IMG/VR virus record: IMGVR_UViG_2651869785_000017
Direction: 5' to 3' (one strand)
DNA length: 4,859 nt
Source of the DNA: a virus
Taxonomy: Duplodnaviria; Heunggongvirae; Uroviricota; Caudoviricetes
In this document: positions 1,862 to 4,707 of the stretch, piece by piece
How the letters are laid out: each line of letters starts with the position of its first letter
Position numbering within the stretch: the first letter of the stretch is position 1
Notes under the pieces: model-generated
Database searches by the model: none
What the model was told of the DNA's origin: nothing
Seen by the model: only the letters and a program-made list of their open reading frames with translations
Program-made: the position numbers and the translations under genes

Positions 1862-1931
1862 AAGTTGTGTGGCGAAGTAACCACTCTTAACACAATACAA
1901 TACTTTTTGCGTACGCGTTAGTGTTTTGATA

Positions 1932-1966
1932 GAATTTTCAGCCACATAAAAATTCATTCTTATAAT
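1932..1966 (+). promoter_or_regulatory. Candidate promoter/operator region for the cassette
   Basis: Consensus TATAAT at 1961-1966, 12 bp upstream of the gene-1 ATG, but with no good -35 and no strong SD. A 7-bp inverted repeat GAATTTT (1932-1938) / AAAATTC (1949-1955) with a 10-bp spacer sits where a -35 would be, suggesting an operator or activator-dependent promoter. Confidence 0.25.
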
Positions 1967-1978
1967 TCGGGATATATA

Positions 1979-3154
1979 ATGGATATAACTTGTTTAGAAT
2001 GTGGCAATGTTCTTGACGACCCAACTGTAGCTTGCGATAAATGCGGTGCCACGCCTCATGTTGTAGTGCTGGGCAAACAATCGTACTTTCCTATTGGTGC
2101 TGTAACAGCAAATCTTGAAAAAAATGATTCAAGAGCATTTGATTATCGATTAGGTGAAGTTTGGGATCTAAAAAATGAAGTCACATCTGAATTCATAACC
2201 AGAATTGAGAAAAAATTTAGCCGAAAAAACAAATTTCATAACTTCCTAGACTCAGATCACAACCCTTCATCCATTCCTACGATCCTAAAAAAATACATTA
2301 ATAAAAATAATGAATTCATTGATTTATCTAGAGCTATAATAGAGAAGCTTAAACATAATGCTAATAACGAATCGAGAGTTGCCCAACTTCAGGGGGGGAG
2401 CGTTGTTTTCATCCACTATAAGTCTACCGAACCAGAGGATTTGGGGAAACTTCTAATCGTAATGGTTGATAAACAAAGCGCCTATGACTTTGATTCGGAT
2501 AAGTTGACCCCAACAAGATTAAATCCAATTAATACCGATGCCTTACGGCAGGCTGCGATGTTCGATTTAACTTTATTCGAAGCCAGTTATCCAGAAAACA
2601 AGGGTGACTCATATGTACATTTCTTGCAAGGTAAATCTAAAAGCGATTTTTTCAAAGACTCATTAGGTTGCCGACATGATTCGGACAATAAAAGAAGCAT
2701 TCAGCAATTATTCAGTGCTATAGATATTTTTGCTAGTAAAAACTCACTCGGTCGTGTACTGCGTGATACTATTGACAATGAAGTTAAATCCTTACTGGAA
2801 AAAAAATCAAAAGATAAACACGGAAATAAGTCCGTTAAGATAGAGGATATTTCAAAAATAATTGACTCATGCCTGACTGATTCACACAAATGTAAGGGAA
2901 CGTTTGTCGATTTTGTTAATCTTAATGGTTTCCAGATTGACCCTCAATTTGAACCAACTCCTAAAGCAGCTGAAAGCGCGCTTACAATTGAAGTGGCAGA
3001 TAACGACAATAATTTTAAGTTGAAAATAATGCGTGGAGCTATTGGAGACGAAAAGTCAAATAAGCCTGTAATTCTCACTGACAACAAATGCGAAATTGTG
3101 ATAAAATTGAGTCAGGCAAATTATGATGAACTCAAAAGATATAGAGACAGCTAA
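1979..3154 (+). CDS. Zn-ribbon + NdpA/YejK-like (NA37 family) nucleoid-associated-protein homolog, 391 aa; cassette gene 1
   Basis: Hand-verified translation. Residues 5-22 form a CxxC-x10-CxxC zinc ribbon (CLECGNVLDDPTVACDKC). Residues ~138-228 (GGSVVFIHYKS...LLIVMVDKQ...DLTLFEASYPENKGDSYVHFLQGKSKSDFFKDSLG) align by eye with the conserved core of E. coli YejK (GGFVLFCHY...[23 protein letters not shown]). Strongly AT-rich and K/N/I-rich, unlike the flanking DNA. Confidence 0.8.
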   Translation: MDITCLECGNVLDDPTVACDKCGATPHVVVLGKQSYFPIGAVTANLEKNDSRAFDYRLGEVWDLKNEVTSEFITRIEKKFSRKNKFHNFLDSDHNPSSIPTILKKYINKNNEFIDLSRAIIEKLKHNANNESRVAQLQGGSVVFIHYKSTEPEDLGKLLIVMVDKQSAYDFDSDKLTPTRLNPINTDALRQAAMFDLTLFEASYPENKGDSYVHFLQGKSKSDFFKDSLGCRHDSDNKRSIQQLFSAIDIFASKNSLGRVLRDTIDNEVKSLLEKKSKDKHGNKSVKIEDISKIIDSCLTDSHKCKGTFVDFVNLNGFQIDPQFEPTPKAAESALTIEVADNDNNFKLKIMRGAIGDEKSNKPVILTDNKCEIVIKLSQANYDELKRYRDS

Positions 3155-3156
3155 TA

Positions 3157-4371
3157 ATGACAATTGCTGATGACTTATCAAGATTAGCGCAGATTATTAA
3201 CGGAGCCTCAAGCAGAGTTGAGGGCTACTACACTGTCATAAGTCTTGAAGAAAGCATTGTTATTGTAAATAGTTCTGAAATAATTAGACTGTTACAATCT
3301 ATAGGTTATAAAAAGGCAACAACCTGCATCGAAAATAATGAAATTTGGCTAGATCGCCAAGCTTCATCTTGGGATGACGCTATAATTTATGAGAATGTTG
3401 AGTCTTTTTGGTCTAGAGTAAACACCCAAAACGCTCTTCCGAAAAATTATATCATCGGAACGCCGTTAATACTCCCTACTTCTAAGAATGAAAGCATCGA
3501 AAAAATCCATATTTTCTTTATGTGGAAAGATATCCTTTCATTAATTGCTGATCATCATAACAGTGACTGCTCTGTCTTATTTTTCACCAATGAAGACAAA
3601 AGTTATACAGTCGAACTCACGCATTTTTTACAATATAGCGAGATTAATCGCTTATCGAACTCGTCTCTTAAATATGAAATTATAAAGGAGCTTCTCGACA
3701 CAATAAAAATCAATGATTTACACAAAAGCGAGCGCAAGCTCGTTATACGCTCAGCCATAAACGAAGTATTTAAAGCAAATGGTACGTTCAATTTCTTTGA
3801 CTTGCTTAACTCTACTGAACTCGTCAGGAAAAAATATGATGAACTATATGAGATTTACACAAAGAGGTTTTCTGTAAATAAAATTCTTAACGAACTCGAT
3901 GAGAAAAATCTTGAGTTCACGAGTAAAATTAACGAATTCATATCATCTAATCAGACAAAAGCATTGACTATTCCCGGTGCATTAATAGCTGCTGGTGGCT
4001 TAGTGAAGGCTAATGAAACAACCGAAGCAATATTGATTATCGCAGGACTTTGGATGATAAAAAAAGTCAATTACATTTCTATTGAGATATTCAATGAAAC
4101 ATTCGACAACTTACGTTCTCGAGTGGAGTCCGCTTTCGATAAGTATTTAAAGTTTGAAGAAAATAAAGAAATCAAAGATAATGCAGATAGTATTAAGAGT
4201 AGCATTACAGGTTTGATTGATAAAGCTAAAAAAAGGATGAGAACTGTTAAATATCTCGCATCAGCCATGTTTTATGGAGGCCTTATTTACGTTGGATATA
4301 AACAGTTCCCAGTCTTTTTTGAAAAATCGGCAGTAAATCTATTTTATTTTTTATGCCATACTATAAGCTAA
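3157..4371 (+). CDS. Hypothetical membrane-anchored protein, 404 aa; cassette gene 2
   Basis: ATG lies 2 nt after the gene-1 stop (TAATAATG), so likely translationally coupled. A ~270-aa N-terminal soluble region has no recognisable catalytic motif (no Walker A, HExxH or obvious nuclease motif). Hydrophobic segments at approx. 3964-4020 (ALTIPGALIAAGGLV), 4030-4070 (AILIIAGLWMI) and 4255-4300 (YLASAMFYGGLIYVGY). Same AT-rich composition as gene 1. Confidence 0.75.
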   Translation: MTIADDLSRLAQIINGASSRVEGYYTVISLEESIVIVNSSEIIRLLQSIGYKKATTCIENNEIWLDRQASSWDDAIIYENVESFWSRVNTQNALPKNYIIGTPLILPTSKNESIEKIHIFFMWKDILSLIADHHNSDCSVLFFTNEDKSYTVELTHFLQYSEINRLSNSSLKYEIIKELLDTIKINDLHKSERKLVIRSAINEVFKANGTFNFFDLLNSTELVRKKYDELYEIYTKRFSVNKILNELDEKNLEFTSKINEFISSNQTKALTIPGALIAAGGLVKANETTEAILIIAGLWMIKKVNYISIEIFNETFDNLRSRVESAFDKYLKFEENKEIKDNADSIKSSITGLIDKAKKRMRTVKYLASAMFYGGLIYVGYKQFPVFFEKSAVNLFYFLCHTIS

Positions 4372-4707
4372 CATTGCTAAACAGCCGTCAACAAACCCCA
4401 TTGCAGTTTGCAGTTCCTTCCTAATTGTGCCATCAGAGCATTTTCTCTTCTTCGCAATAGTACGTAATGAGATACCGATAACAAAGTGGGCGATGATGAG
4501 CTCATATTCCTCTGGTTTATACCTTCTCAACCGAGCCACACAACTGTCTATCATGATGCCTTCGTCATCATCACACTGAATCCGTGACTTTTTGCCATGA
4601 GGTAAAAGTCCCTTGAAACCAGCCGCTATCGGCTGCCAGTCCACTCCGCTATTGTCTGAAGCAGCCCAAGCTCCCCAACGATCCATTACTTCATACATAT
4701 CACGCAT
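4351..4707 (-). CDS. Phage antitermination protein Q (Phage_antitermQ family, QuuD-like), 118 aa
   Basis: Translation MRDMYEVMDRWGAWAASDNSGVDWQPIAAGFKGLLPHGKKSRIQCDDDEG...CSDGTIRKEL matches my recollection of the DLP12 QuuD/Q-family pattern (MRD...ERWGAWAA...IAAGFKGL...SR.QC.DDD...CSDG). ATG at 4707 has a GGAG SD 7 nt upstream; the ORF track's extra 5 codons start at an in-frame TTG at 4722. Confidence 0.85.
   Translation of the reverse strand: MRDMYEVMDRWGAWAASDNSGVDWQPIAAGFKGLLPHGKKSRIQCDDDEGIMIDSCVARLRRYKPEEYELIIAHFVIGISLRTIAKKRKCSDGTIRKELQTAMGFVDGCLAMLAYSMA

Follow-up and report, generated by a model that had tools for sequence, protein, structure and literature searches.

Poly-G tracts within anti-phage genes have a well-described precedent in the Pgl (BREX-type) system of Streptomyces coelicolor, in which a G8 tract in pglX switches in both directions at 1e-2 to 1e-4 (PMC4365076). 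A change of one G truncates this open reading frame (ORF), and the conversion of G8 to G7 abolishes defence (PMC4365076). In Mycobacterium tuberculosis, +/-1 frameshift alleles of a 7-nt G:C coding run, the 7C tract of glpK, occur in natural isolates; rapid reversion via the same tract has been shown experimentally, and the variants build up under selection (10.1101/717272). In Escherichia coli, mutation accumulation studies from the Foster laboratory have identified runs of 5–9 nt as the main sites of small indels, examples being a 9-bp A:T run and, within tRNA genes, G:C runs of 7 and 8 bp (PMC8510543). DS-1, the defence system considered here, comes from the DefensePredictor study, in which the proteins WP_000355468.1 and WP_000150292.1 were cloned as D390 (= DS-1); the supplement gives D390/DS-1 as TRUE in its 'replicated' column, and the main text says only that a YejK nucleoid-associated domain is newly implicated in defence (PMC13092281). 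Term searches of the paper returned nothing on the mechanism of DS-1 or on homopolymer tracts. We describe here a run of seven G (G7) in the first gene of a DS-1 operon in the viral record IMGVR_UViG_2651869785_000017 (Caudoviricetes); the stretch of DNA analysed, 4,859 nt in full, is referred to below as the window. A preliminary description of this DNA proposed that the run was a slipped-strand site providing reversible on/off switching of a costly system. Rather than an evolved switch, the run is probably a homopolymer of the usual kind, acting as a hotspot for loss of function in a defence gene that was validated recently.

The two genes of this operon encode the very proteins tested as DS-1, and both score above the NCBIfam equivalog cut-offs. 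Like pglX, gene 1 (DS-1A) is an anti-phage ORF containing a poly-G tract in which a one-G change truncates the product, but the tract of DS-1A is one base shorter, has a single length in 97% of loci, is not conserved among orthologues and resides in a host with MutS/MutL. It shares with the 7C tract of glpK its size, its G:C composition, its position in a coding sequence and the existence of +/-1 frameshift alleles in natural isolates, but differs from it in that other runs of the same gene vary more.

The tract can be read directly from the letters of the window as GGGGGGG at positions 2392–2398 (+ strand). It consists of the third base of a CAG codon (2390–2392) followed by GGG GGG, with AGC next, and these codons encode Q138, G139, G140 and S141 of gene 1. 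The only long ORF spanning it (1979–3154, 391 aa) has a GC content of 36%, with 18.7% G, and 0.0095 runs of seven G would be expected in this gene from mononucleotide composition. In 20,000 synonymous-codon shuffles preserving both proteins and the codon pool of the two-gene operon, a G run of at least seven was obtained in gene 1 in 0.4% of cases (P ~0.004). GGG accounts for only three of the 30 glycine codons in the operon, fewer than any other, and two of these three form the tract. Over the whole window, two G7/C7 runs are observed, versus 0.07 expected from dinucleotide shuffles. The preliminary description was, thus, right to single out a G7 run in an AT-rich gene: the tract is real and exceeds what local composition predicts. 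An event with a frequency of 0.4% per gene is, nevertheless, unremarkable at the scale of a genome scan.

The length of the tract in nature was assessed in three collections. The operon was found in 107 records (106 genomes) among the RefSeq complete E. coli genomes, always at an identity of at least 99%, and these records were typed with explicit G5, G6, G7 and G8 queries: 105 had G7, one had G6 (UTAK-10), one had G5 (UID2309220009) and none had G8. Pattern scans accepting any tract length yielded 25 G7 and one G6 in IMG/VR (G7 in 25/26), plus two loci reading GGGAGGG, and 10 G7 and one G8 in metagenome contigs. Overall, 140 of 144 E. coli-type loci (97%) carry G7, the remainder being two G6, one G8 and one doubtful G5. 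In a phase-variable locus, ON and OFF lengths would both be common and a spread of lengths would be seen, whereas here almost all loci have the ON length. The preliminary description had itself named invariance of the tract as an observation that would speak against a switch, and the tract is almost invariant.

Neither of the two complete genomes with an off-length tract is a clean switch state. UTAK-10, the only one with G6, also has an additional T at 2970, outside any run, and therefore two frameshifts in gene 1, which is annotated in this genome as two 'nucleoid-associated protein' coding sequences (CDSs). In UID2309220009 (NZ_CM142667.1; positions 689 and 2548 of the locus compared), the change from G7 to G5 lies 1.9 kb from a G6-to-G5 change in rzpD, which is annotated as frameshifted; two G-run deletions within such a short distance suggest a long-read or assembly error, or a mutator background.

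Rarer alleles were sought by generating the frameshift products in silico and looking them up by exact match among about 15 billion proteins. After a gain of one G (G8) or a loss of two (G5), translation ends at a TAA at 2419–2421 (+), giving products of 147 and 146 aa, respectively, that end in ...QGGERCFHPL; a product ending at this codon has been called as a gene in 10 loci. After the loss of one G (G6), the stop is a TAA at 2454–2456 (+) and the 158-aa product ends in ...QGGALFSSTISLPNQRIWGNF, a CDS annotated in UTAK-10. The G6 product was found in 28 contigs, the G8 product in 27 and the G5 product in 34, versus at least 1000 contigs for the wild-type product of gene 1; no G9 product and no product of the in-frame lengths G4 or G10 was present in the same set of proteins. 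The repeat lies inside an ORF and a change in its length alters the product, a property shared with contingency loci. Truncation had been predicted to occur after about 140 aa, which is close to the actual lengths of 147 aa (+1/-2) and 158 aa (-1).

These length variants could be homopolymer miscalls made during sequencing or assembly, with a tract that is effectively invariant in nature. The G5 allele lends itself to this explanation: in addition to the second G-run deletion in UID2309220009, a G5 product of gene 1 (MDF9334109) and an A7-to-A6 product of gene 2 (MDF9334111) have almost consecutive accessions, suggesting a single assembly with multiple homopolymer deletions, and the 34 contigs encoding G5 products may be largely artefacts. 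The strong bias towards deletion of the variants of A runs in the operon is also as would be expected of long-read errors. By contrast, G8 is an insertion. In a haplotype survey of the ten best G8 loci, from varied sources, the additional G was the only indel in all ten and gene 2 was intact in all ten; the operons with G8 represent at least five single-nucleotide polymorphism haplotypes, with several contigs having the same haplotype, and lie in several different prophage backbones, and some of these contigs have names (NODE_, k127, k141) suggestive of short-read metagenome assemblers. This occurrence on five haplotypes, as the sole indel and in contigs of short-read type, indicates that G8 is real and recurrent. 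G6 is present on at least two haplotypes, and the A7 allele of the longest A run of gene 1 corresponds to WP_001588485.1, a RefSeq protein of unrelated genomes. A general explanation in terms of miscalls is, thus, decidedly improbable. The proposal that G7 is a substrate for slippage was borne out by the independent G8 and G6 haplotypes and by the exact truncated products present among public proteins.

The other homopolymers of the operon provide an internal comparison. A run of eight A in gene 1 (2799–2806, +) is frameshifted more often than any other tract of the operon: with 61-nt queries, A7 or A9 was found in 8 of the 107 complete genomes, versus 2 of 107 with an off-length G7. Truncated products of 287 aa (A7) and 279 aa (A9) are encoded by 373 and 97 contigs, respectively, making 470 in total versus 89 for G7. 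The A7 and A9 alleles are each present on at least two haplotypes; the A7 allele, WP_001588485.1, is a long-standing RefSeq protein. The other A runs also vary. In gene 1, the A7 run at 2118–2124 (+) has an A6 product in 58 contigs and an A8 product in six (64 in total), and the A7 run at 2287–2293 (+) has an A6 product in 14 contigs, with no A8 product, the A6 allele being present in FORC_069. In gene 2, A6 products were found for the A7 runs at 4059–4065 (+; 53 contigs) and 4228–4234 (+; eight contigs), with no A8 product for either, and frameshift products were found in 17 contigs for an A6 run at 3829 and in nine contigs for an A6 run at 3500. Frameshift alleles were, thus, present at every run of at least six nucleotides tested in the operon, with by far the most at the longest run. 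This resembles the run hotspots of E. coli, with the difference that laboratory rates were obtained for those hotspots, whereas the variation considered here is standing variation, confounded by clonal expansion and sequencing error. The G7 tract is not more variable than runs of comparable length in gene 1; it is not special, given that A8 varies about four times more and that all the runs tested vary. Further lesions of the operon were found at a T5 and a CC, together with an IS1 insertion interrupting gene 1 after ~2441 (isolate AF5) and an insertion of ISKpn26 (IS5-like; strain JB2, NZ_CP182203.1). In total, the operon is disrupted in at least 16 of the 107 complete genomes.

The codons aligned with Q138-G139-G140 were compared between 29 homologous loci, corresponding to about 27 distinct alleles, with amino-acid identities expressed relative to the protein of the window. 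The closest allele, from Salmonella (96%), reads CAG GGA GGG, whereas an allele from Raoultella (92%) reads CAG GGG GGG. Two alleles at 90% identity read CAG GGT GGA and CAA GGT GGC, and one at 88% reads CAG GGT GGA; the glycine codons are GGT GGT in the alleles at 84% and 81%, and GGA GGA in the allele at 75%. GGT, GGA or GGC is used in all 11 distinct alleles at 54–90% identity, and the loci at 57% or lower have no G run longer than four. G7 is, therefore, found in two distinct alleles (E. coli and Raoultella), versus about 24 other distinct alleles encoding GG. Third-position divergence is 26% for Raoultella, giving a probability of about 0.41 that all three third positions would be retained by chance, and 11% for Salmonella, in which one of the three positions has changed. 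Retention in Raoultella and loss in Salmonella both fit neutrality, and the tract is not maintained across orthologues beyond neutral expectation. The dipeptide encoded by the tract had been described as a conserved GG of the NA37 core; it is common (29 of the 39 homologues aligned) but not invariant, as EN or NN is found instead in one subgroup. The use of non-repetitive GG codons by homologues was the second observation named beforehand as telling against a switch, and such codons are far more common than G7.

The tract has also been considered as a site of programmed -1 ribosomal frameshifting, with G GGG GGG read as a slippery X XXY YYZ heptamer and a 147-aa N-terminal isoform produced beside full-length DS-1A. 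The register of the heptamer is correct, but it is missing from nearly all homologues and no stable structure was found downstream: the folding energy of the 80 nt at 2399–2478 is -14.9 kcal/mol (z = -0.77), a stability matched by 43 of 200 shuffles. All-G heptamers are, moreover, known to shift poorly in E. coli. This explanation was rejected, on the basis of the shuffle-like folding and the lack of conservation of the heptamer, and we consider it extremely improbable.

The loss-of-function hotspot that we favour can be accounted for without any selection for switching. The tract is probably incidental, generated by synonymous drift (from GGT/GGA to GGG GGG beside CAG) in one recent DS-1A lineage carried by the lambdoid prophages of E. 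coli, a G7 allele also being present in Raoultella. Like any mononucleotide run of 7–8 nt, it is a hotspot for replication slippage, with alleles probably generated by slipped-strand mispairing, at a rate presumably typical of a mismatch-repair-proficient enterobacterium. The gain or loss of a G shifts the frame, and translation stops at 2419–2421 or 2454–2456. Beyond the N-terminus of zinc-ribbon type, the resulting fragments of 147 or 158 aa retain no more than the initial quarter of NA37, and DS-1 is presumably inactive in such cases because most of this domain is lost. Gene 2 may additionally suffer from polarity or a loss of coupling. Such alleles, presumably loss-of-function, recur and are observed at a few per cent, as are the frameshifts in the A8, A7 and A6 runs and the insertions of IS elements. 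The overall pattern is one of a dispensable defence cassette of prophages being eroded by unspecific mutation, rather than of a dedicated and selected switch, reversible at high frequency.

Several observations weigh against this interpretation and in favour of a genuine contingency locus, in which G7 would be kept because reversible +/-1 slippage turns DS-1 off, when it is costly or autoimmune, and on, under phage attack. The choice of codons is improbable given the codon usage of the operon, as reflected in the P value of ~0.004 and the use of two of the three GGG codons. G8 has arisen independently at least five times and G6 has also recurred, in operons that are otherwise intact, as would be expected of an OFF state that is young or reversible. 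Gains and losses of one G are about equally frequent (27 vs 28 contigs), unlike those of the deletion-biased A runs, and the frequencies on which the comparison of tracts is based are rough, because contigs do not represent independent events and only a lower bound (at least 1000) is available for the wild type. Prophage-borne anti-phage genes belong, in addition, to a class in which contingency loci are known, and there are precedents in the G8 tract of pglX (PMC4365076) and the 7C tract of glpK (10.1101/717272).

The distribution of the tract is, however, difficult to reconcile with such a locus. The tract is missing from the closest allele, that of Salmonella, and no allele with an identity of 90% or below carries it; this distribution fits neutrality. 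With 97% of loci at the ON length, there is no spread of lengths, and in-frame +/-3 variants were absent from the proteins searched. The A8 run of the same gene varies more, the other runs tested vary too, and the only complete genome with G6 has a second, non-reversible frameshift. Both precedents are from Actinobacteria, which lack MutS/MutL, whereas these proteins remove most +/-1 slippage intermediates in E. coli. Contingency loci typically switch at 1e-2 to 1e-5, and MutS/MutL keeps the +/-1 slippage of a G run of 7 nt several orders of magnitude lower than this in E. coli. A genuine contingency locus is, in our view, unlikely. We are also doubtful of a more modest version, in which G7, perhaps together with A8, would be a low-frequency but used reversible switch of DS-1, such that lysogen populations would always contain an OFF minority able to revert. 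Because both observations named in advance as arguing against a switch were essentially made, and because A8 is the more frequent frameshift site, the reversible on/off role proposed for G7 is unsupported.

A switch at this site would be of interest because it would amount to a prophage-borne defence of E. coli gated by slipped-strand mutation and, among the newly discovered defence systems of E. coli, would be the first described case of a slipped-strand contingency locus. Such gating is regarded as rare in mismatch-repair-proficient E. coli. The hotspot reading has practical consequences of its own. DS-1 is disrupted in at least ~15% of the complete E. coli genomes carrying it; IS insertions and frameshifts in homopolymers, at A8 more than at G7, account for most of these lesions, and defence surveys based on presence or absence therefore overestimate functional DS-1. 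G7 and A8 are also sites at which DS-1A will be split in long-read assemblies and by gene callers, and both should be checked before pseudogenes are called.

DS-1A (1979–3154, +) is an NA37-domain nucleoid-associated anti-phage protein according to both Pfam and NCBIfam. It matches PF04245 (NA37) over residues 64–376 with 84.5 bits (cut-off 24.6) and passes NF053868 (DS1_1_antiphage) with 451.4 bits (cut-off 330), but it remains below the YejK equivalog NF001557 (81.4 bits vs a cut-off of 341). It is a diverged NA37 paralogue with an additional zinc-ribbon-like N-terminus, and not YejK itself. A CxxC-x(10)-CxxC motif of zinc-ribbon type (CLEC...CDKC) opens the protein at residues 5–23 (window 1991–2047), ahead of NA37; the Pseudomonas-type homologues of the alignment do not have this motif. 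A weak match to NinF / Zn_Beta_Ribbon at the N-terminus of DS-1A is listed in the HHpred table of the DefensePredictor study (PMC13092281).

The second gene, encoding DS-1B (404 aa), extends from 3157 to 4371 (+), and its ATG is located 2 nt past the stop codon of gene 1, making translational coupling and polarity plausible. DS-1B passes NF053869 (DS1_2_antiphage) with 375.2 bits (cut-off 315), and a Pfam search of the proteins of the window identified no domain in it. The last ~130 residues (window 3950–4371) contain hydrophobic stretches, such as ALTIPGALIAAGGLV, AILIIAGLWMI and ASAMFYGGLIYVGY, which look like transmembrane segments and hint at a putative membrane-acting effector. In a genome 100% identical to the window over positions 1900–4400, the products of the two genes are WP_000355468.1 (gene 1) and WP_000150292.1 (gene 2). 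PADLOC-DB 2.0.0 (2023) contains no model for either protein.

The operon is carried by a lambdoid prophage, in which it is convergent with the gene for the Q antiterminator (4722–4354, -; Pfam Phage_antitermQ). The 3' ends of gene 2 (stop codon 4369–4371) and the Q gene (stop codon 4351–4353) overlap by ~20 nt, at 4351–4371. The gene pair is kept in homologous loci, in which DS-1A is 54–96% identical, and most other carriers have the operon directly between Q and the holin. This same slot between Q and the holin/lysis genes is occupied by the DS-1 pair in Escherichia, Salmonella, Raoultella, Enterobacter, Klebsiella and Serratia, with the pair on one strand and Q and the lysis genes on the other. 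The site just downstream of Q looks like a moron or defence hotspot. Two homologous DS-1 loci lie elsewhere, one by a primase-like D5_N gene and the other by an integrase gene. No near-identical DNA was found in the INPHARED phage collection.

On the other side of the operon, the window contains a gene for a 65-aa protein, an AraC-family gene, three tRNAs and a gene for a SASA-family esterase. The gene for the 65-aa protein (1515–1712, -), which has a weak TrmB-like winged-helix match, and that for the AraC-family regulator (HTH_AraC/HTH_18; 667–1380, -) separate DS-1 from the tRNAs in this form of the prophage, at a place taken by the holin in most other carriers. The Ile/Arg/Arg trio of tRNAs downstream of Q resembles the ileZ-argN-argO of Stx-type lambdoid phages; the tRNA at 563–638 is identified as Met (anticodon CAT) by ARAGORN, versus tRNA-Ile in the RefSeq annotation. 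A second 7-nt G:C run, C7 on the + strand (G7 on the - strand), is located in the intergenic region at 1475–1481, ~95 nt upstream of the start of the AraC-family gene (1380, -) and downstream of a terminator-like hairpin (~1500–1528, -) located after the gene for the 65-aa protein. A megablast search with 61 nt around this run yielded no match, perhaps owing to low-complexity filtering or to the 28-nt word requirement, but it is C7 in all seven related loci compared.

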